From: a virus
Length of the DNA: 11,233 nt
Virus genome (UHGV): UHGV-0151101
Direction: 5' to 3' (one strand)
The notes beneath the pieces were generated by a model that was given only the letters and a program-made list of their open reading frames with translations, was not told the DNA's origin and did no database searches. This document shows, piece by piece, positions 1,340-11,049 of this stretch (positions are counted from its first letter, which is position 1; each line of letters opens with the position of its first letter). Made by a program: the position numbers and the translations under genes.

Positions 1340-1777
1340 TTATTTCAGGCATTGCGTCCTGATGTACTCCTGCAGGTAGTTAACCTGCGCGGTTATCTTG
1401 TCGATTCCACTTCGGAGACGGTAATAATTGAGTTCAGCATCTGCTGTAAGTCTTGGGCTTTCTCCATCGCCCATGCTGCTGGCTCCGGTCGTTGACTTTG
1501 CACAGGTGGCGGCGACTTGCAGGCGCTTACGACCAGCAGAAACATCAGCACGGAGACTTTCGATAGTCGCGTTTGCATCAGCAAGCTCCTTTGTATATCT
1601 GGCGTCGAGTTCTGCTACATCACGTTGACGCTTCTGCATGTCAGCGATGATGTACGTGGCTTTATCGCGCTGCTCTTTGTAGGCGATGGCGTTATCACGG
1701 TAATGATTAACAGCCCATGACAGACAGACGATGATGCAGATAACCAGAGCAGAGATAATCGCGGTTAATCTGCTCAT
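1340..1777 (-). CDS. Rz: Rz i-spanin (inner-membrane spanin subunit), 145 aa
   Basis: N-terminal half [31 protein letters not shown] is near-identical to lambda Rz as recalled; C-terminal half diverged. Start overlaps the R stop (ATGA). Confidence 0.9.
1393..1584 (-). CDS. Rz1: Rz1 o-spanin lipoprotein, embedded in the +1 frame of Rz
   Basis: ORF lies wholly inside Rz in another frame. Signal peptide with lipobox LLVVSAC, then a Pro-rich segment [17 protein letters not shown], parallel to lambda Rz1. Confidence 0.8.
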
Positions 1778-2250
1778 ACCTCAATCTCTCTTACCGTTCC
1801 GCCAGCTTCTTTGAATTTTGCAATCAGGCTGTCAGCCTTATGCTCGAACTGGCCATAACCAGCCCCGGGCAACGAAGCCCAGATATTGCTGCAACGGTCG
1901 ATTGCCTGACGGATATCACCGCGATCAATCATCGGCAAAGCGCCACGCTCTTTAATCTGTTGCAATGCCACAGCGTCCTGGCTTTTCGGAGAGAAGTCTT
2001 TCAGGCCAAGCTGCTTACGGTATGCATCCCACCAACGTGAAAGAAGCTGGTAACGTCCGGCGGCTGTTGATTTGAGTTTGGGGTTTAGCGTGACAAGTTT
2101 GCGAGGGTGATCGGAGTAATCAGTGAATAGCTCTCCGCCAACAATGACGTCATAACCATGATTTCTGGTTTTCTGACGTCCGTTATCAGTTCCCTCTGAC
2201 CATGCCAGCATATCGAGGAACGCCTTACGTTGATTATTGATTTCCACCAT
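1774..2250 (-). CDS. R: Endolysin R (lytic transglycosylase), 158 aa
   Basis: [61 protein letters not shown]... is essentially identical to lambda R as recalled. Confidence 0.95.
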
Positions 2251-2557
2251 CTTCTACTCCGGCTTTTTTAGCAGCGAAGCGTTTGATAAGCGAACCAATC
2301 GAGTCAGTACCGATGTAGCCGATAAACACGCTCGTTATATAAGCGAGATTGCTACTTAGTCCGGCGAAGTCGAGAAGGTCACGAATGAACCAGGCGATAA
2401 TGGCGCACATCGTTGCGTCGATTACTGTTTTTGTAAACGCACCGCCATTATATCTGCCGCGAAGGTACGCCATTGCAAACGCAAGGATTGCCCCGATGCC
2501 TTGTTCCTTTGCCGCGAGAATGGCGGCTAACAGGTCGTGTTTTTCTGGCATCTTCAT
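2234..2557 (-). CDS. S: Holin S, 107 aa, with dual-start Met-Lys-Met motif
   Basis: [39 protein letters not shown]... is near-identical to lambda S as recalled. Two in-frame ATGs at codons 1 and 3. Overlaps the R start. Confidence 0.95.
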
Positions 2558-2994: not shown

Positions 2995-3082
2995 CAAAAA
3001 AAGCCACCGTTGCAACTTAAGAGTCACTAACGGCAGCTTATGCGAATAGTGTTGCTCATTTGCTCAATGATGTCAACACGTT
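2995..3082 (-). promoter_or_regulatory. Late promoter and terminated leader (pR'/qut/tR'-like) immediately downstream of Q
   Basis: On the - strand a TTGACA -35 hexamer (+ coordinates 3071-3076) sits just after the Q stop, with no clean -10. An imperfect hairpin spans 3002-3038 and is followed by a T7 run (+ strand A-run 2996-3002). Sequence from about 2560 to 2990 resembles the lambda region between tR' and S as I recall it. Confidence 0.4.
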
Positions 3083-3571
3083 CTATGCTACATGTTTAAT
3101 TTTCTCTACACGTTTCCGGGTTTTAAACGCACTATCCAGAACCGGGTAAATCATAAACAACGAAGCATTGAGGATTTCGTCAACTTCCCGGCGACAGGTT
3201 GCGAACGATGGTTTTTGAATACGCCCGCCGCCCCGGCATAACATCTTGCGAGGTCTTGCGACACGATGATAGTAAGATGCAATGGCATGCTTGGAAGATC
3301 CATGAGCGTAGTAGCTGAGGAGGATGCCAAAGGCTTTCTTGTCAATGTACATGACGGAATCGACGACCTGAGAAATCAACATTCCATCATCATCATTACA
3401 CATTGGCCTTGTCATAACTCTTCCCGGCTCTACGCTCTCCATGAACTTAGCTATTACGCTGCTCATGCGCTTTTCCAGACGACCTGAATAAACCCATGCG
3501 CCCCACAGTTCAAGCCAGCCATTCAGCCAATCGTGCTGTTCTTTGGTGAGGTTTAGTTCTCTTATGCTCAT
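3083..3571 (-). CDS. Q: Late-gene antiterminator Q, 162 aa, not the lambda Q type
   Basis: Position between ninH and the lysis cassette. Size and Cys-containing basic segment KMLCRGGGRIQKPSFATCRREVDEIL are consistent with the short Q family of phage 21 as I recall it. Start overlaps the ninH stop (ATGA). Confidence 0.75.
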   Translation of the reverse strand: MSIRELNLTKEQHDWLNGWLELWGAWVYSGRLEKRMSSVIAKFMESVEPGRVMTRPMCNDDDGMLISQVVDSVMYIDKKAFGILLSYYAHGSSKHAIASYYHRVARPRKMLCRGGGRIQKPSFATCRREVDEILNASLFMIYPVLDSAFKTRKRVEKIKHVA

Positions 3572-6024: not shown

Positions 6025-7401
6025 TCATACGTCAGCCCCTTGTGCATATCGTCTGCCACGCGCAGCAGGTGCATTTGATGTTGTGCAAATCTGTCTGGCT
6101 TCATCCTGGTCACATGCAACAAAGTGTCCGTTGCAGAACCGCTGGTAAACCGTACCAAGCGAGCCAAAACGGTTTTTCGTCACAATGATTTCAGCAAATG
6201 GCGCGGCGCTACTGTTCTCGTCATATACCGCCTCCCGATAGAGCATGATGATTGAGTCTGCGTCCTGTTCAATGCTTCCTGAATCACGCAAATCTGCGTT
6301 TGTCGGGCGTTTATTTGGTCGCTTCTCAACATCGCGCGAAAGCTGACTCAGGGAGATTACTGGCGTTTTCAGGTCTTTCGCCATCGCCTTCAGGCTTCCG
6401 GAGATGTGAGCAATTGCGAGGTCGTTGCGATCTGCTTTCGGCTTCTCAATCAGGCCAAGATAATCCGCCATGATGAGTGAGAGGTTTGGATTTTCCTGTT
6501 TGTGCCGTTCTGCGATTGAGCGTATTTCTTCGACCGATAACCGCGAGGCATCGACCACCCATACATCCAAATCTGCAAGCTGACTCATTCCGTTAGCAAC
6601 ACGTGCCCAGCCCTCGTCATCCATCGATGCAGGATTTCGCAGTACGCTAACCGACATCCTCCCGGCGTTGGCAATGCTTCGCTCTGCGATCTGCAATGCG
6701 CTCATTTCCATCGAGAAAATCAACACTCCGCGCCGGACGTCAGAACCAGGAATAACGCGGCTTGCAACGCCTTCGGCAATCTTCAGCGCCAGTTCGGTTT
6801 TCCCCATACCAGGACGAGCAGCGATTATCACCAGGTCTTCCGCGTTCATCCCTCCGGTGATGGCATCAAGTTCTTCGATTCCGGTCTTCAGGGTATCTGA
6901 CTCTTCTCCGTTCCTCAGACGCCTGTCAAGCGTGTCAGTGTAGTCGGTGATGATTTCCCCTAACCGTACCGGTTTAACCTCGTCACGTGGCTTTCTGATG
7001 GCTGAAAGACGCTTTACAAGTTCATCCATCGCCTGACTCGATGCGTCGATGGTTCCGCTCTGAATTGGTTCACGCATTTCATCCATGATTTCCAGCACCA
7101 GACGGCGGTGATAGTTATCCGCGACCATTCCGGCATATCCCTTCAGGTTTGCGGCACTCGGGCAGTTTTTGCTGGTCATCAGGATTGACGTGAAATGCTC
7201 CTCTCCGCACGCCTCGGCAACCATCAGCGCGTCGATTAGGTTTCTGTTTCTCGCCTGCTTGCGGATAACCTCGAAGGCTTTCCGGTAGAGCGGAATTGAA
7301 AACGCTTCCGGCTCCAGCGTTGCCAGAACGTCACTGGCAGTTGGTGTTAATCCACCAATCAGCAAGCCACCGATAACGCTCGCTTCGATATCCTGTCTCA
7401 T
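6025..7401 (-). CDS. Replicative DNA helicase, DnaB family, 458 aa
   Basis: Walker [16 protein letters not shown] and helicase motifs ([15 protein letters not shown]). Resembles the phage-encoded DnaB-type helicase of P22 (gene 12) by recall. Start overlaps the O-like stop. Confidence 0.9.
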
Positions 7402-8219
7402 GCAATCCCCCTGTCTGCAAACTTCCCTTCCCGTACTCCCGTTAACGAATCTTCCCTCAGCAGGTAATCAAAATCTGCCGTCCAGCCAGTGTCGTTGTCT
7501 CCGAAGTAAAACGGCTTGGCCTGATGCACAAACGCCCTGACATACGCTCTGAAACCGTCCACGTTTGGCGTTTTCAGTTGCGGGATGATTTTCTTCAGGC
7601 GGCGTTTGCGTTTCTCGTTGACCGCAACAGCGTGTGGCAGTCTGTCACCGACTTCGGTGTTGTAGGCGTTCAGGAAGGATTCATAGTCGATTCGTTCTGC
7701 CTTGCGACGTTCAGGTTTAACCTGCCCATCGCCGCCCCCGTTAGGGGGTAAGGGGGTATTTGTATTTATTGTCTTTTGTATATTGTCTTTTGTGTTTAGC
7801 TGACTTGGCTTATACCCATTAGCCGACTTGGCTAATGTTTTATTAGCTGTTTTAGCTAATGTTAAGCTGTCCTGGCTAATCCACTGAGAAACCACCTTGT
7901 TCACTCCGATTTTCACGCCATCAGCAATGAGGAATTTACGCTCGATAAGCTGGCGCTTGGCAGCGCAAACATGAGTGTGATGAATACCTGTCATGGCTGC
8001 TATCTGCGTGTTTGTGAGTCGATCCATCGGCTTATTGAATCCGTATGTCTTGCGCATGATAGCGAGCATCACCTTCAACTGCCGGACGGTTAAATCAGCC
8101 ATCAGCAGACTGTCGGTAATCTCGTTAGCAACGCGCATGAAACCATCTTCGGTATCTGCCACGCGATGCTCCACGACCTCCAGTTGAGGCCTGTAATCAG
8201 CTAACTTAACGACGCCCAT
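7398..8219 (-). CDS. Replication initiator, lambda O-like, 273 aa, with the origin inside the gene
   Basis: Position after cII. N-terminal DNA-binding region, central low-complexity linker ([47 protein letters not shown]) encoded by iteron DNA, C-terminal domain. GGAG lies 7 nt upstream of the start. Confidence 0.85.
7756..7880. repeat. Replication origin: four ~19-bp iterons plus an adjacent AT-rich tract
   Basis: Iterons at about 7796-7814, 7819-7837, 7843-7861 and 7862-7880 (TTAGCTGACTTGGCT, TTAGCCGACTTGGCTAATG, TTAGCTGTTTTAGCTAATG, TTAAGCTGTCCTGGCTAAT). AT-rich 7757-7795 holds a 12-bp direct repeat ATTGTCTTTTGT at 7768-7779 and 7782-7793. Same layout as lambda ori inside O. Confidence 0.65.
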
Positions 8220-8367
8220 GTTTCACTCCTGCTTTGGCTAGTCTGTAAACACCAACAAGGCGCTCTGCGAACGCCCTGTTATTTGCTGCGGCTACCACTA
8301 ATCCCTCAGGTGAATCAGGGTGTCGAATCTCTTCTTTTTCCTGGTATTTCTTACGACGTTTTGTCAT
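8206..8367 (-). CDS. Possible small basic protein, 53 aa, between cII and the O-like gene
   Basis: Hand translation [57 protein letters not shown] 5 nt upstream of the ATG; 3' end overlaps the O-like start by 14 nt. No homolog recognised. Confidence 0.3.
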   Translation of the reverse strand: MTKRRKKYQEKEEIRHPDSPEGLVVAAANNRAFAERLVGVYRLAKAGVKHGRR

Positions 8368-8376
8368 AATTACTCC

Positions 8377-8452
8377 TGTGGATTGATCCAGTAATTCCCT
8401 CAGAATTGCATATCAATTTGCTTAAAATCCTCGGTGGCGGCCGGGGATTTTT
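8377..8452 (+). ncRNA. Candidate oop-like antisense RNA covering the cII 3' end
   Basis: CATAAT -10-like hexamer at 8365-8370. Weak A/T-rich stem AAAATCC / GGATTTT (8424-8430 and 8445-8451) then a T-run, antisense to the cII codons for KKSPAATED, the same relative position as lambda oop. Predicted length about 76 nt. Confidence 0.35.
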
Positions 8453-8696
8453 TCTTTGTGATTTCATCAAGCGCATACTTAAAAGCCCTGCTAATCGGAC
8501 TGATGTCTGATGCCATTCCGAAAGCACACAAGACCGAAGCAATAAATCTCCAGTCCGTTCTGCTTATCTTCGATTCATGACAGCCAATCATCTTTGCCAG
8601 ACCGCGCTGGGTAAGCGTTGACAGGTTGATGAGTAAATCAGTTTCAGCGCGATCAATTTCTCGCTGTGTTGGCTTGCTGTAGCTTGCTTGTGCCAT
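8400..8696 (-). CDS. cII: cII-family lysogeny activator, 98 aa
   Basis: SKISRTDWRFIASVLCAFGM and C-terminal KKKSPAATEDFKQIDMQF parallel lambda cII (SQISRWKRDWIPKFSMLLAVLEWG, KKRPAATERSEQIQMEF as recalled). Located between cro and the O-like gene. Confidence 0.85.
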   Translation of the reverse strand: MAQASYSKPTQREIDRAETDLLINLSTLTQRGLAKMIGCHESKISRTDWRFIASVLCAFGMASDISPISRAFKYALDEITKKKSPAATEDFKQIDMQF

Positions 8697-8712
8697 TTGT
8701 TAATTTTCCTAT
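8672..8712 (+). promoter_or_regulatory. PRE-like cII-dependent promoter (TTGC-N6-TTGC), pointing toward cro and the repressor
   Basis: TTGC tgtagc TTGC at 8674-8687, then 6 nt, then the complement of the cII ATG (CAT at 8694-8696) and a -10-like TAATTT at 8701-8706. Lambda PRE has the same architecture as I recall it. Confidence 0.6.
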
Positions 8713-8762
8713 ATTGATATTGAGTTATAGCGGCACACCCAATGGATTTGCCGCTGATGTTT

Positions 8763-8806
8763 GCTCACCCGGTTAGAGGTGAAAGGCCAGAACTGTTAAA
8801 GAGCAA
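8763..8806 (-). promoter_or_regulatory. nutR: boxA plus boxB hairpin
   Basis: On the - strand, boxA TGCTCTTTAACA begins 6 nt after the cro stop. boxB UCACCU-CUAACC-GGGUGA (6-bp stem, hexaloop CUAACC) at + coordinates 8763-8783. Confidence 0.65.
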
Positions 8807-8811
8807 TTTGC

Positions 8812-8997
8812 TTATGCCGCTTGGCGGTAAGCACTTTCTTGATACTTCAGGGCGCCAGCTGTAACGATTTCCAATCGATAGGCGTCTTTCTCTGGGATAA
8901 CTTCTTTCCACTGAGAGACTGCTGCATCGCTAATGCCTAGTGCTTTAGCAACAGCACGCTGGGTTCCGAAGTGGTCAATAACATCTTTTTTGTACAT
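8812..8997 (-). CDS. cro: Cro repressor, 61 aa, P22 Cro type
   Basis: MYKKDVIDHFGTQRAVAKALGISDAAVSQWKEVIPEKDAYRLEIVTAGALKYQ... matches P22 Cro as recalled. GGAG 7 nt upstream of the start. Confidence 0.9.
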   Translation of the reverse strand: MYKKDVIDHFGTQRAVAKALGISDAAVSQWKEVIPEKDAYRLEIVTAGALKYQESAYRQAA

Positions 8998-9077
8998 AGA
9001 CTCGCTCCGAAATTAAAGAACACTTAAATTATTCACCAAAGGAATCTTAAGTCAAGTTTATTTAAGATGTCTTAACT
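8998..9077. promoter_or_regulatory. Right operator region with divergent PR (- strand, cro) and PRM (+ strand, repressor)
   Basis: 18-bp palindromic operators ATTAAAGAACACTTAAAT (9012-9029) and ATTTAAGATGTCTTAACT (9060-9077), plus a weaker CTTAAG-containing site near 9045-9062. PR on the - strand is TTGACT-N17-ATAATT. The repressor ATG at 9078 directly abuts an operator. Confidence 0.75.
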
Positions 9078-9728
9078 ATGAATACACAACTGATGGGTGA
9101 GCGTATTCGCGCTCGCAGAAAAGAACTCAAGATTAGGCAGGCTGCCCTTGGCAAGATGGTTGGCGTGTCTAATGTTGCTATTTCCCAATGGGAGCGATCT
9201 GAAACTGAGCCCAATGGCGAAAACCTATTGGCCTTAGCCAAGGCTTTGCAGTGCTCCCCTGATTACCTGTTGAAAGGAGAGGATAGTCTTTCAAACATTG
9301 CCTATCACAGCAGGCATGATCCAAGAGGTTCGTATCCTCTAATTAGTTGGGTAAGCGCAGGATGTTGGATGGAAGCTGTAGAGCCATATCATAGGCGTGC
9401 AATAGATAACTGGTACGACACAACGGTAGATTGTTCTGAAGACTCTTTTTGGCTCGACGTTAAAGGCGATTCAATGACTGCCCCGGCAGGACTGAGTATT
9501 CCTGAGGGGATGATTATTCTCGTCGACCCAGAAGTCGAACCACGTAATGGAAAGCTGGTAGTCGCCAAACTTGAAGGAGAAAACGAGGCGACATTCAAAA
9601 AGTTAGTTATTGATGCCGGTAGAAAATTCCTGAAACCACTCAATCCACAATACCCAATGATTGAAATCAATGGGAACTGTAAAATCATTGGCGTTGTCGT
9701 TGATGCCAAGCTAGCAAACCTTCCTTAA
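9078..9728 (+). CDS. c2: Prophage repressor, 216 aa, P22 c2 type (cI family, LexA-like autocleavage domain)
   Basis: MNTQLMGERIRARRKELKIRQAALGKMVGVSNVAISQWERSETEPNGENLLALAKALQCSPDYLLKG... and the C-terminal peptidase-like domain (GDSM...K) match P22 c2 as recalled. Confidence 0.95.
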   Translation: MNTQLMGERIRARRKELKIRQAALGKMVGVSNVAISQWERSETEPNGENLLALAKALQCSPDYLLKGEDSLSNIAYHSRHDPRGSYPLISWVSAGCWMEAVEPYHRRAIDNWYDTTVDCSEDSFWLDVKGDSMTAPAGLSIPEGMIILVDPEVEPRNGKLVVAKLEGENEATFKKLVIDAGRKFLKPLNPQYPMIEINGNCKIIGVVVDAKLANLP

Positions 9729-9750
9729 GGGGCTTTCGCCCCTTTTTTTA
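9729..9750 (+). terminator. Intrinsic terminator after the repressor gene
   Basis: GGGGC tttc GCCCC followed by TTTTTTT, starting 1 nt after the c2 stop. Confidence 0.7.
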
Positions 9751-9793
9751 TTTCCCGTTAAAAATCAAAGACAAACTAAATTCACGCCCATAA

Positions 9794-9853
9794 AATTAAG
9801 TTTTCTTCAAAAATGCACTTGACCAATAAATTAAGAAGTCTTAAATTTAAGCC
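9794..9853 (+). promoter_or_regulatory. PL promoter with OL operators
   Basis: TTGACC (9819-9824), 17-nt spacer, TAAATT (9842-9847). Operator-like AATTAAGAAGTCTTAAAT at 9829-9846 overlaps the spacer and -10. A second, weaker half-site pair lies at 9794-9811. Confidence 0.55.
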
Positions 9854-9893
9854 ATCAGCAGGACGCTGGAAGCCAAACGGAACAGATTGGCAG

Positions 9894-9933
9894 GCTCTTT
9901 AACATCGACGGACTCTCAACCTAACCGTTGAGA
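9894..9933 (+). promoter_or_regulatory. nutL: boxA plus boxB hairpin
   Basis: boxA GCTCTTTAACA at 9894-9904. boxB TCTCAAC-CTAACC-GTTGAGA at 9914-9933, with the same CUAACC hexaloop as nutR. Confidence 0.65.
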
Positions 9934-10043
9934 CCAGAACTTGAGTGGTTTTGGGGATGGCGCGAATTGCAGCTGCAAGACAGCGATCGAGAAGATAAGC
10001 ACCTCGACGCGTCATGCGCCAAAGCCACTTAAAGGAGACCATC

Positions 10044-10349
10044 ATGGTAACCATTGTCTGGAAAGAATCCAAAGGTACGGCAAAAAGCCGCTACAAAGCT
10101 CGCAGAGCAGAACTTATTGCCGAGCGACGCAGTAATGAAGCACTGGCGCGAAAAATTGCGCTAAAGCTCTCTGGTTGCGTCAGAGCAGACAAAGCAGCAT
10201 CACTAGGAAGCCTTTGCTGCAAGAAGAAAGAAGAAGTCGTTCGAAAAAATAGAAGTATTTATTACAAAGATTCAAACCCATTAGGAAACAAAATACATGC
10301 AGTCCAAAAAATAAAATTGTACAGTAAACTACCGTACGGTGCTTATTGA
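10044..10349 (+). CDS. N: N-like early antiterminator, 101 aa, phage-21-type arginine-rich motif
   Basis: N-terminal GTAKSRYKARRAELIAERR matches the phage 21 N boxB-binding peptide as I recall it. AAAGGAGA ribosome-binding site 6 nt upstream of the ATG at 10044. Follows PL and nutL. Confidence 0.8.
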   Translation: MVTIVWKESKGTAKSRYKARRAELIAERRSNEALARKIALKLSGCVRADKAASLGSLCCKKKEEVVRKNRSIYYKDSNPLGNKIHAVQKIKLYSKLPYGAY

Positions 10350-10351
10350 GT

Positions 10352-10690
10352 ATGCTTATGGTGAAAAAGACTATTTATGTTAATCCTGACCGCGGACAAA
10401 ACAGAAAAGTATCTGATAGAGGTCTTACATCTCGAGACAGGAGGAGAATAGCGAGATGGGAAAAAAGGATAGCATATGCATTAAAAAACGGTGTAACACC
10501 TGGATTTAATGCTATAGATGACGGTCCTGAATATAAGATTAATGAAGAACCAATGGACAAAGTTGACAAAGCATTAGCAACACCATTTCCTCGCGATGTC
10601 GAAAAAATTGAAGATGAAAAATATGAGGATGTAATGCACAGAGTTGTTAATCACGCTCACCAACGAAATCCAAATAAAAAATGGTCATAG
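10352..10690 (+). CDS. Hypothetical protein, about 112 aa, in an AT-rich segment immediately downstream of N
   Basis: Complete ORF beginning 3 nt after the N stop (start ATG at 10352 or 10358 uncertain). Basic N-terminal half, acidic C-terminal half. Followed by a strong intrinsic terminator. No homolog recognised. Confidence 0.5.
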   Translation: MLMVKKTIYVNPDRGQNRKVSDRGLTSRDRRRIARWEKRIAYALKNGVTPGFNAIDDGPEYKINEEPMDKVDKALATPFPRDVEKIEDEKYEDVMHRVVNHAHQRNPNKKWS

Positions 10691-10712
10691 CCCACTTCGG
10701 TGGGTTTTTTAT
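10691..10712 (+). terminator. Intrinsic terminator (tL1-like) after the N-distal ORF
   Basis: CCCAC ttcg GTGGG followed by TTTTTTAT, immediately after the TAG stop at 10688-10690. Confidence 0.7.
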
Positions 10713-10823
10713 TGTCTGAACAAACCTAATTTACTACCGCAAGCCACGCAGTGAAATGGAGGTGACTTGTGTTGGTCGCCAGAAAATGAAATTAGGCAGC
10801 AAAACACTTATTTGAGGTGATAT

Positions 10824-10910
10824 ATGGAAGAAGAATTTGAAGAGTTCGAAGAGCATCCGCAGGATGTGATGGAACAATACCAGGACTATCCGTATGACTA
10901 CGACTATTGA
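10824..10910 (+). CDS. Candidate 28-aa hyper-acidic, Tyr-rich micro-protein
   Basis: AGGTGA Shine-Dalgarno sequence 4 nt upstream of the ATG. Hand translation MEEEFEEFEEHPQDVMEQYQDYPYDYDY. Shares an exact 18-bp initiation cassette with the next gene. Confidence 0.3.
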   Translation: MEEEFEEFEEHPQDVMEQYQDYPYDYDY

Positions 10911-11049
10911 TAAGAATCAATGGTGTGGACAATACGAACGACGACAATGATTGCCAGAGAACTTGGTAAACAGAACTACAAGGCTGCCTGATGGTGGCCT
11001 TTATTTTTGTCCGTAAATAATTTCATGCTTATTACAATCAAGGTGATAT

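Follow-up and report, generated by a model that had tools for sequence, protein, structure and literature searches.

Matched nut sites beside a P22-like repressor in a mosaic lambdoid prophage: very probably the imm21 module of coliphage 21

The immunity region of the DNA studied here (the window, a stretch of 11,233 nucleotides) raises the question of whether antitermination and repression have been brought together from different phages. An earlier note had described two nut sites sharing one boxB loop, a phage-21-type N, and a repressor and Cro resembling those of P22, and had read this combination as recombination between modules inside the immunity region itself. Our comparison indicates that a mosaic lambdoid prophage carries here what is almost certainly the imm21 module of coliphage 21. 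Over 8360–10266, nucleotide identity is 97.7–98.9% with phage 21 (OL657228) and with lambda imm21 (OM418625), and the block running from cII through nutR, cro, cI and nutL to N is 83.5% identical to P22. The orientation of the window is inverted, its minus strand corresponding to the pR operon and its plus strand to the pL operon. The nut sites consist of the following elements:

8794–8804, minus strand: nutR boxA, GCTCTTTAACA, exact match; boxA-R is annotated in phage 21
8764–8783, minus strand: nutR boxB hairpin UUCACCU-CUAACC-GGGUGAG, loop at 8771–8776, from folding; identical to the phage 21 nutR stem-loop
9894–9904, plus strand: nutL boxA, GCTCTTTAACA, exact match; boxA-L is annotated in phage 21
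9914–9933, plus strand: nutL boxB hairpin UCUCAAC-CUAACC-GUUGAGA, loop at 9921–9926, from folding; identical in phage 21 nutL

Both shared elements reported by the earlier note, the common boxA and the CUAACC hexaloop, are present. GCTCTTTAACA occurs exactly twice in the window and nowhere else in it, and each copy is followed at a distance of 9–11 nt by a CUAACC hairpin; with one mismatch allowed, about 0.18 boxA matches are expected by chance, and two or more were obtained in 2 of 200 shuffles. The stems named there, CUCAAC/GUUGAG and UCACCU/GGGUGA, can be extended to UCUCAAC/GUUGAGA and (U)UCACCU/GGGUGA(G), and both hairpins are predicted to be stable when folded in isolation, boxB-L at −7.4 kcal/mol (z −5.1; 0 of 200 shuffles equally stable) and boxB-R at −7.6 kcal/mol (z −2.6). 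They are retained in 51-nt contexts, and boxB-L is also retained in the fold of the 206-nt pL leader. The stem sequences of the two sites are wholly different and only the loop is common. As natural variation of 21-type boxBs is small, support from covariation comes chiefly from this comparison of nutL with nutR: among the IMG/VR matches listed (at least 120 stretches), three real sequence types were found, namely nutL, nutR and a nutR variant, GCUCACCU-CUAACC-GGGUAAGC, which has lost an internal C-G and gained two basal pairs, the other matches listed being unrelated and boxA-like.

Chance structures or ordinary terminators, rather than protein-binding boxB elements, might be suspected from the weak z-scores of the 51-nt folds (−1.2 and −0.5) and from an Rfam scan of the whole window (E ≤ 1), whose sole match was a chance snoRNA, with none over nut, boxB or any other RNA. 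However, identical loops on unrelated stems follow perfect boxA copies at the canonical positions: in the ORF map and promoter scan, nutL falls after pL and before N, and nutR separates cro from cII, in the same order as annotated for phage 21. The terminator scan called neither hairpin terminator-like, both sites match the annotated phage 21 features base for base, and sites of this type are conserved in at least dozens of viral contigs among the IMG/VR matches listed. Moreover, the structure of the boxB/N-peptide complex has been solved, and the CUAACC hexaloop is that of the phi21 boxB RNA of PDB 1NYB (PMC12550061). The probability that these hairpins are fortuitous or mere terminators is practically negligible, and we treat them as boxB elements. 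Some other repeats of the window were judged to be due to chance: the direct repeat AGGCCAGAACT/AGACCAGAACT (8784–8794 and 9931–9941), since about 1 million position pairs predict several 10/11 matches, and the inverted repeats I1 and I2.

Downstream of nutL, the pL operon carries:

10044–10349, plus strand: N antiterminator, 101 aa (alignment; 1NYB peptide; PHROG 271, N-like, E 4.6e-31)
10358–10690, plus strand: nun, HK022-type transcription arrest factor (PDB 6ALG and 1HJI; PHROG 5632, E 4e-69)
10689–10712, plus strand: first intrinsic terminator of the pL operon past nutL (terminator scan)
10720–10815, plus strand: relic of a 21/CUS-3-type N 3' end, TNLIYYRKPRSEMEVTCVGRQKMKLGSKTLI followed by a stop (alignment and translation)

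N therefore lies outside positions 8763–9933, the range given in the earlier note. Its arginine-rich motif had been given correctly: GTAKSRYKARRAELIAERR occupies residues 11–29, within residues 8–29, a stretch that matches the phi21 N peptide (PDB 1NYB chain A) at every position. A full-text literature search for the peptide string of this motif returned no match. The description of N as phage-21-type holds for residues 1–57, comprising the arginine-rich motif and the central region (100% identity to phage 21 N), but fails for the last 44 residues (58–101), for which identity drops to about 45% with phage 21 N but is 98–100% with the allele linked to nun in mEp235, mEpX1 and Kapi1, phages whose database records give E. 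coli as host. Over its whole length, N is 99% identical to mEp235 N. The gene is thus a chimera with a specificity-determining part of the 21 type; orthology to phage 21 N does not extend through the C-terminal RNA polymerase-binding part and, the last 44 residues being another allele, we infer rather than observe full functional equivalence with phi21 N. Nevertheless, N and its nut sites are of the 21 type rather than of the P22 gene 24 type. N and P22 gp24 are 25.7% identical in a global alignment, the gp24 motif, GNAKTRRHERRRKLAIER, is unrelated to that of N, and the P22 boxBs, GCGCUGACAAAGCGC and CGCCGACAACGCGG, carry GACAA-type pentaloops; neither a gp24-type motif nor a boxB of that kind was found at this locus.

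One could argue that the N/nut system is decaying, N having been inactivated when the nun cassette replaced its 3' part, with vestigial nut sites in a defective prophage. The departure of N from phage 21 past residue 57, the 21-type N 3'-end relic displaced to 10720–10815 and a frame-breaking 103-bp deletion in the neighbouring gene ral would agree with this. Yet the N ORF is intact, and the same chimeric allele is found (98–100%) in mEp235, mEpX1 and Kapi1. The conserved pattern RK..IYY....G....QKIKL.SK, found at the C-termini of lambda and 21 N, is retained in the alternative C-terminus, which is also similar to that of gp24 in phages L, ST64T and ES18; the gp24 proteins of L and P22, which differ in exactly this C-terminal part, were reported to be interchangeable (PMC8022706). 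Decay of the system seems to us quite unlikely.

On the repressor side, the elements are as follows:

8400–8696, minus strand: cII, 98 aa, an ORF (Pfam Phage_CII, E 2.7e-33)
8812–8997, minus strand: cro, 61 aa (Pfam P22_Cro, E 5.7e-28)
9011–9077, no strand assigned: OR, three 18-bp operators with pR and pRM (operator repeat family D1, inverted repeat I3, promoter scan)
9078–9728, plus strand: cI repressor, 216 aa, with HTH and S24 autocleavage domain (Pfam HTH_3, Peptidase_S24)
9727–9751, plus strand: intrinsic terminator closing the cI (pRM/pRE) transcripts, a 7-bp G+C-rich stem and then a T run
9763–9847, plus strand: OL operators (OL1–3) and pL (repeat families, promoter scan, phage 21 annotation)

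The P22-like character of both regulators was borne out: cI, a c2-type repressor by its HTH and S24 domains, is 93.5% identical to P22 c2 in amino acids, and Cro, a member of the P22_Cro family, is 98.4% identical to P22 Cro. Residues 1–68 of cI differ at two positions from the P22 c2 N-terminal domain structures 1ADR/2R1J, and Cro differs at one residue from PDB 1RZS. Both proteins are, at the same time, 100% identical to those of phage 21 (phage 21 cI being read from the start codon used for P22 c2). OR, whose operators are also annotated in phage 21, matches that phage at 85 of 86 positions and P22 at 82 of 86; its minus-strand pR has a −35 (TTGACT) that starts at 9055 and a −10 (AATAAT) that ends at 9028. 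The three 18-bp P22/21-type operators of OL are likewise conserved, and pL has its −35 (TTGACC) at 9819–9824, its −10 (TAAATT) at 9842–9847 and its start at about 9854, start and OL1–3 being mapped from the phage 21 annotation with an offset of 7200. Promoters and terminators thus occupy canonical positions. The terminator at 9727–9751, conserved in phage 21, had been proposed (at 9729) as a target for N-dependent read-through; it ends cI transcripts and lies upstream of pL, and is for that reason no target of N acting from nutL. The natural target for N-mediated read-through is the terminator at 10689–10712. The first gene past nutR and tR1 in the pR operon is cII, whose product is 100% identical to mEp235 CII and 89.8% identical to that of phage 21, diverging only near the C-terminus.

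The near-identity of the DNA-binding domains and of OR suggests that the repressors of phage 21 and P22 recognise the same operators, as was reportedly described by Botstein and Herskowitz in 1974 and by Poteete and colleagues in 1980. Given these protein and operator identities, the window's prophage would be expected to show cross-immunity with lambda imm21, and also with lambda immP22.

Is the locus then a novel recombinant, in which a crossover within the immunity region brought phage 21 N and nut together with P22 c2 and cro? The cassette of P22 from boxA-R to boxA-L (cro, OR, c2, OL and pL) is indeed homologous (83.5% in nucleotides), and the alignment check proposed in the earlier note came out as anticipated. 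Nucleotide homology with P22 is confined to 8794–9908, starting exactly at boxA-R and ending 4 nt past boxA-L, while N residues 1–57 and the nut sites are those of phage 21. The P22 boxA is identical over GCTCTTTAAC at nutL and differs at one position at nutR (GCTCTTTACC). By contrast, cII, N and the boxBs fall outside the homology: N and the boxBs are unrelated to those of P22, and P22 c1 is unrelated to the cII found here (21%). However, the cI and Cro proteins are those of phage 21 itself, and the cassette is about 98–99% identical to phage 21 in nucleotides, against 81% (cI) and 90% (cro) for P22, so that the junction must have been inherited from the phage 21 lineage. It is, moreover, ancient, since third-codon-position identity between cI and P22 c2 is only 54% despite the 93.5% amino-acid identity. 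Such a novel recombinant is accordingly very improbable, and at the level of sequence the comparison with phage 21 already refutes it.

As cI and Cro are fully identical to phage 21's own and the whole block is 97.7–98.9% phage 21, the region is simply imm21; its regulators share the immunity type of P22 c2 and Cro because phage 21 natively encodes such proteins. Judged from these alignments, a 21-type N beside a P22-type repressor is classical imm21 and no new recombinant. The boundary between 21 and P22 modules is real, ancient and a property of phage 21 itself. Of the recombination originally proposed, the boxA-to-boxA boundary stands, whereas the idea that the window is an unusual recombinant does not; it displays the phage 21 state.

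How the module would operate can be outlined by analogy with lambda and with the NMR structure of the phi21 N peptide bound to boxB. The cI and Cro proteins would act on the operators, three each at OR and OL; upon derepression, the pL and pR transcripts would bear nutL (boxA 9894–9904, boxB 9914–9933) and nutR (boxA 8804–8794, boxB 8783–8764). The N-terminal arginine-rich helix of N would bind the CUAACC hexaloop boxB, boxA would recruit NusB/S10, and the remainder of N, with NusA and NusG, would lock onto RNA polymerase, which could then pass the terminator at 10689–10712 on the left and tR1 and those beyond it on the right. We infer that N and nut are active in this way in the window's own prophage. 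The architecture is that of the lambda N/nut/Nus system, in which a boxA, a spacer and a boxB hairpin follow both pL and cro, and a long hairpin also lies between nutL and the N ribosome-binding site. The elements themselves differ from those of lambda, which has GAAAA or GAAGA pentaloops instead of the CUAACC hexaloop, a boxA of the form CGCUCUUA rather than the rrn-like GCUCUUUAACA, and a different N arginine-rich motif. Because these motifs differ, N specificity is, as is well established, not interchangeable between the lambda and 21 types. The phi21 N/boxB pair, with its solved structure, is a textbook model of RNA–peptide recognition.

The claim that nut specificity travels with N is supported by the phages compared, in which boxB type co-occurs with the N arginine-rich motif. 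One cro–cI cassette type was found with three N/boxB types and, conversely, at least five unrelated cI/cro cassettes lie between nutL/nutR pairs of the 21 type in the IMG/VR scan. The phages CUS-3, N7 and Gally have the same P22/21-type cro–cI cassette and boxA as the window, and an N core (residues 36–99) nearly identical to that of phage 21 N, but their arginine-rich motif is DNARNRRRARRQAQREQ and their boxBs are CCCGC-CGAAAU-GCGGG at both nut sites. All nutR-side junctions seen are located exactly at boxA, and nutL-side junctions either at boxA (P22) or within the conserved linker between pL leader and boxA. The cro–OR–cI–OL–pL cartridge, lying between two inverted boxA copies, could thus be a unit of exchange, and a second specificity set, whose members co-vary, would consist of the two boxBs and the N arginine-rich motif. 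Synonymous distances among the cassettes of phage 21, P22 and CUS-3 are roughly equal, a hint that the exchanges were few and ancient.

The locus also bears on the history of nun. The Nun protein is identical to PDB 6ALG chain N at 107 of 109 residues and is also matched by the 1HJI arginine-rich peptide; by sequence, it has both the lambda-boxB-binding arginine-rich motif and the C-terminal RNA polymerase-blocking region. It is accompanied by the alternative N 3' end, inside which the annotated nun promoter is located (ATGCAG 10297–10302, TACAGT 10320–10325); the 29-nt segment holding the promoter annotated in phage O276 is identical here at 29 of 29 positions. The N 3'-end relic at 10720–10815 is displaced by the nun cassette: positions 10719–10957 align with the phage 21 locus at 3046–3284, from N codon 68 onward, with 92.5% identity. 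HK022, HK75 and O276 keep 114 nt of the alternative N 3' end as an unannotated relic. These relics, and the fact that nun travels with this N 3' end, suggest an N–nun phage like that of the window as the ancestor of the HK022 lineage, which lacks N and uses put RNA. Taken jointly, a boxA-flanked cartridge under exchange, a three-part set of motif, boxB-L and boxB-R, and an origin of the HK022 lineage from an N–nun phage form a tentative proposal that is more doubtful than probable. Both threads, module exchange and nun, are refinements of the classical picture of modular evolution and may already be published; the idea of module exchange holds but is old.

As a discovery, the locus carries little weight. 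The imm21 immunity region with its N/nut antitermination is already known and well studied, and the finding is real but ordinary. Sequences of phage 21 segments were first deposited decades ago (accession list), and the imm21 region has been used for decades in lambda hybrids and is part of the DE3 prophage in BL21(DE3). What the check contributes is a negative result that clarifies matters, an apparent chimera proving to be the native state of phage 21. Its by-products show, in a small natural example, that the specificities of antitermination and of immunity are inherited independently of one another among lambdoid phages, and they bring minor gains in annotation: the boxA-bounded cassette, three arginine-rich-motif/boxB sets on one cassette, the N–nun chimera, whose N holds the nun promoter, and HK022's relic of N.

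That the window as a whole might be phage 21, mEp235 or an already sequenced E. coli prophage was rejected, colinear coverage remaining below 80% in all phage records and complete E. coli genomes compared. It contains no tRNA genes. Phage 21 (OL657228) has the same N-terminal three quarters of cII, cro, OR, cI with its terminator, OL/pL, nutR, nutL, N leader and N residues 1–57, but it lacks the HK022-type nun and terminator inserted after N, and its cII C-terminus is different; the replication genes of the window, furthermore, include a DnaB-type helicase replacing lambda-type P, and its lysis genes are not those of phage 21. Phages mEp235 (JQ182731) and Kapi1 (MT813197) are 99.5–99.6% identical over 8700–10400, chimeric N and nun included, but cover 49–64% of the 11.2-kb window, the remainder being a different mosaic. 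The mEpimmI paper makes no mention of mEp235; the annotation of mEp235 already gives N, Nun, 'similar to P22 C2/Cro' and both boxA sites. The block is also present in the plaque-forming phages mEp235, Kapi1, HK629 and phiv205-1, and 80% or more of its length was found in no fewer than 438 (roughly 8%) of the 5426 complete E. coli genomes.

Read from the sequence and an ORF map, the window holds a lambdoid early region that runs in the inverted orientation.

Features of the window
1340-2557, minus strand: lambda-type S/R/Rz lysis genes
minus strand: Q-type gene and nin genes
6025-7401, minus strand: DnaB-type helicase
7398-8219, minus strand: O-type initiator
8400-8696, minus strand: cII
8783-8764: boxB-R hairpin, stem UUCACCU/GGGUGAG, loop CUAACC
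8812-8997, minus strand: cro
-35 at 9055, -10 ending at 9028, minus strand: promoter pR
9078-9728, plus strand: cI
9727-9751, plus strand: terminator of the cI transcripts, upstream of pL and nutL
-35 at 9819-9824, -10 at 9842-9847, start at about 9854, plus strand: promoter pL (start mapped from the phage 21 annotation)
9914-9933: boxB-L hairpin, stem UCUCAAC/GUUGAGA, loop CUAACC
10044-10349, plus strand: N
10358-10690, plus strand: nun (HK022 Nun ORF; also matched to PDB 6ALG)

No colinear match over at least 80% of the window was found among phage records or complete Escherichia coli genomes. The window combines common modules into a new mosaic: lambda-type S/R/Rz genes, a DnaB-type helicase, the phage 21 immunity region (imm21) and nun.

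An earlier note had singled out the stretch from nutR to nutL, N falling beyond the coordinates it gave, for joining a P22-type repressor and Cro to an N and nut sites of phage 21 type. The P22 likeness is borne out, cI being 93.5% identical to P22 c2 and Cro 98.4% identical to P22 Cro; only two of the 68 residues of the cI N-terminal domain differ from the crystallised P22 c2 domain (1ADR, 2R1J), and Cro differs from 1RZS at one residue. Yet both proteins are 100% identical to their phage 21 counterparts. Similarly, nutL, nutR, OL/pL and the cI terminator are identical or nearly so, base for base, to annotated phage 21 features, and OR matches at 85 of 86 positions. In a megablast search of phage genomes with 8700-10400, 92% of the query aligned at 98.9% identity with phage 21 (OL657228), the DE3 prophage and lambda imm21, and 100% of it at 99.5-99.6% with mEp235 and Kapi1; the colinear match to phage 21 extends over 8360-10266 (97.7%). 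Given the identity of cI, Cro and the nut sites to those of phage 21, the association of P22-type immunity proteins with a 21-type N/nut system is the native state of imm21. Judged by sequence, the flagged combination is this canonical, long-known region, and we reject the idea that the window is a new recombinant of phages 21 and P22, since cI, Cro and both nut sites were already phage 21's own. At least 80% of 8760-10350 is present in 438 of 5426 complete E. coli genomes. The complete genome of phage 21 was published in 2022 (PMC9119081), and segments spanning imm21 had been deposited long before. The annotation of the phage 21 record (OL657228) is odd at 1861-2529: cI has been given an internal start (190 aa), although the 216-aa frame aligns with P22 c2 over its full length, and the label OR2 is given to two operators.

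The matched nut sites were confirmed. The boxA sequence GCTCTTTAACA occurs exactly twice in the window, at 8794-8804 (minus strand) and 9894-9904 (plus strand), against a chance expectation of about 0.18, and a hairpin with the loop CUAACC lies 9-11 nt 3' of each copy; the loops are identical and the stems unrelated. Both boxB elements are predicted to be stable, with isolated hairpins of -7.4 (nutL) and -7.6 (nutR) kcal/mol (z -5.1 and -2.6), and both are retained in 51-nt contexts, as is boxB-L when the 206-nt pL leader is folded whole. The RNA of PDB 1NYB is described in a 2025 paper (PMC12550061) as the phi21 boxB with its CUAACC hexaloop. The N leader as a whole folds at -72.7 kcal/mol (z -4.6) and includes a long, nearly perfect hairpin at about 9941-10032, between boxB-L and the N ribosome-binding site and ending just before the latter, which recalls the hairpin that RNase III processes in the lambda N leader. 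An 11-nt direct repeat (AGGCCAGAACT/AGACCAGAACT) is found in the nutR spacer (8784-8794) and the 3' flank of boxB-L (9931-9941); its copies would be complementary as RNAs, but the repeat is probably due to chance.

The earlier proposal of recombination within the immunity region holds in that a module boundary is real, and fails in that it is not new. Nucleotide homology to P22 is confined to 8794-9908; it sets in at the final base of boxA-R and stops four bases beyond boxA-L, and both boxBs, N and cII lie outside this stretch and are unrelated to P22. Within it, cI is 93.5% identical to P22 c2 as protein but 81% as DNA and 54% at third codon positions, and cro shows 16 synonymous codon differences and one non-synonymous. 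These distances mark the exchange as ancient, an event in the history of phage 21 and not of the window. CUS-3, N7 and Gally represent a third lineage of the P22/21-type cro-cI cassette at a similar synonymous distance. Their boxA is the same, but each of their nut sites carries a third type of boxB, CCCGC-CGAAAU-GCGGG, and in their N the arginine-rich motif (ARM) DNARNRRRARRQAQREQ is joined, after residue ~35, to a phage-21-like core; in the CUS-3 record a 'boundary sequence' is marked between cI and N.

Scanning IMG/VR for the pattern of a 21-type nutL/nutR pair returned at least 34 contigs. Among the matches listed, 25 enclose the 21-type cassette, and in nine (L044, L087, L111, L011, L030, L067, L069, L046 and L102) the pair surrounds one of four further, unrelated cI/cro cassettes, 1.26-2.85 kb long and in some cases holding additional genes. 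Identity of these loci to the window begins exactly at boxA on the nutR side and, on the nutL side, a little before boxA, within the conserved pL leader. Eight of the nine have a diverged N (MATIIWKEAKGTAKSRYKARRAAKIEQ...) with an unchanged boxB-L and a variant boxB-R, GCUCACCU-CUAACC-GGGUAAGC, in which two extra basal pairs accompany an internal C.A mismatch; the ninth, L067, has the standard 21-type ARM and boxB-R. Taken together, these comparisons indicate that boxB specificity travels with the N ARM, as the earlier note had supposed, and that the immunity cartridge enclosed by the two inverted boxAs assorts independently. Lambdoid phages have long been seen as modular in this way. About 110-410 nt downstream of its nutL match, on the locus reverse strand, L067 encodes an N with the phage 21 ARM and central part and a C-terminus resembling that of P22 gp24 (…VAIYSAGYRKSKQLTAR), another C-terminal swap.

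The N of the window is itself composite. Its ARM is that of phage 21, as first read: residues 11-29 are GTAKSRYKARRAELIAERR, and the phi21 N peptide of PDB 1NYB matches residues 8-29 with 100% identity. In contrast, gp24, the P22 counterpart of N, is only 25.7% identical in global alignment, with an unrelated ARM, and the P22 boxBs (GCGCUGACAAAGCGC and CGCCGACAACGCGG) are unlike those of the window, so that N and boxB are closer to phage 21 than to P22. However, N is not 21-type throughout: residues 1-57 are identical to phage 21 N, whereas the last 44 (58-101; window 10215-10349) are ~45% identical. This tail is 98-100% identical to that of N in mEp235, mEpX1 and Kapi1, 85% identical in PA28 and a group of Stx1a phages, and has a more distant likeness (61-75%) to the C-termini of gp24 in Salmonella phages L, ST64T, ES18 and BTP1; it retains RK..IYY....G....QKIKL.SK, a pattern common to the lambda and 21 N C-termini. 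The allele (85-100%) was found only in nun carriers (mEp235, mEpX1, Kapi1, PDP110P1, PA28 and the Stx1a group), and nun lies directly 3' of N in mEp235, mEpX1, Kapi1, PA28 and the Stx1a group. N is thus a chimera of a 21-type head and a different, nun-linked tail, and is presumably functional, as the ORF is intact and database records list E. coli as host for the phages with this allele.

The adjacent ORF encodes HK022 Nun, with 107 of 109 residues matching PDB 6ALG and a further match to the ARM peptide 1HJI (Nun 20-45). The nun promoter annotated in O276 (ATGCAG ... TACAGT; L128 765-793) is identical at 29 of 29 positions to 10297-10325, inside the last 18 codons of N, which would explain why this N 3' allele and nun are always linked. 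HK022, HK75 and O276 are without N, yet keep 114 nt of the 3' end of this allele, unannotated and 97% identical to window 10232-10345, just upstream of nun (in HK022, L007 1501-1614); they may thus descend from a phage with both N and nun in which putL took the place of the 5' part of N. Past the nun terminator, 10720-10815 preserves as a relic the final 31 codons of an N gene of the 21/CUS-3 type (TNLIYYRKPRSEMEVTCVGRQKMKLGSKTLI and stop), with 92.5% identity to phage 21. The cassette of alternative N 3' end, nun and terminator (~10232-10718) therefore looks to have been inserted into a 21-type N gene or to have replaced part of one. Robert et al. are said to have reported in 1987 that lambda-type nut sites are targets of Nun and 21-type ones are not; a 21-type N and Nun would therefore be predicted to coexist without self-exclusion.

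Antitermination by lambda N is well established and is applied here to identical phi21 parts; we infer the working of N and nut in this prophage from that system. In the lysogen, cI on OR and OL would shut off pR and pL. After induction, the pL transcript would bear boxA-L and boxB-L ~40-80 nt from its start, and the pR transcript boxA-R and boxB-R just past cro. The arginine-rich helix of N would bind the hexaloop boxB, boxA would bind NusB/S10, and N with NusA and NusG would make RNA polymerase termination-resistant, allowing it to pass the terminator at 10689-10712 leftward and tR1 and later terminators rightward. The terminator at 9729 had also been put forward as a target of N read-through, which is not borne out: it lies upstream of pL and nutL and ends the cI transcripts, and is therefore not a substrate for N loaded at nutL. 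Further along, ral (start 10893; window 10893-10993) is a pseudogene: compared with phage 21 ral it has lost 103 bp internally, between the short repeats GGACAAT/GGGCAAT, and this deletion breaks the frame.
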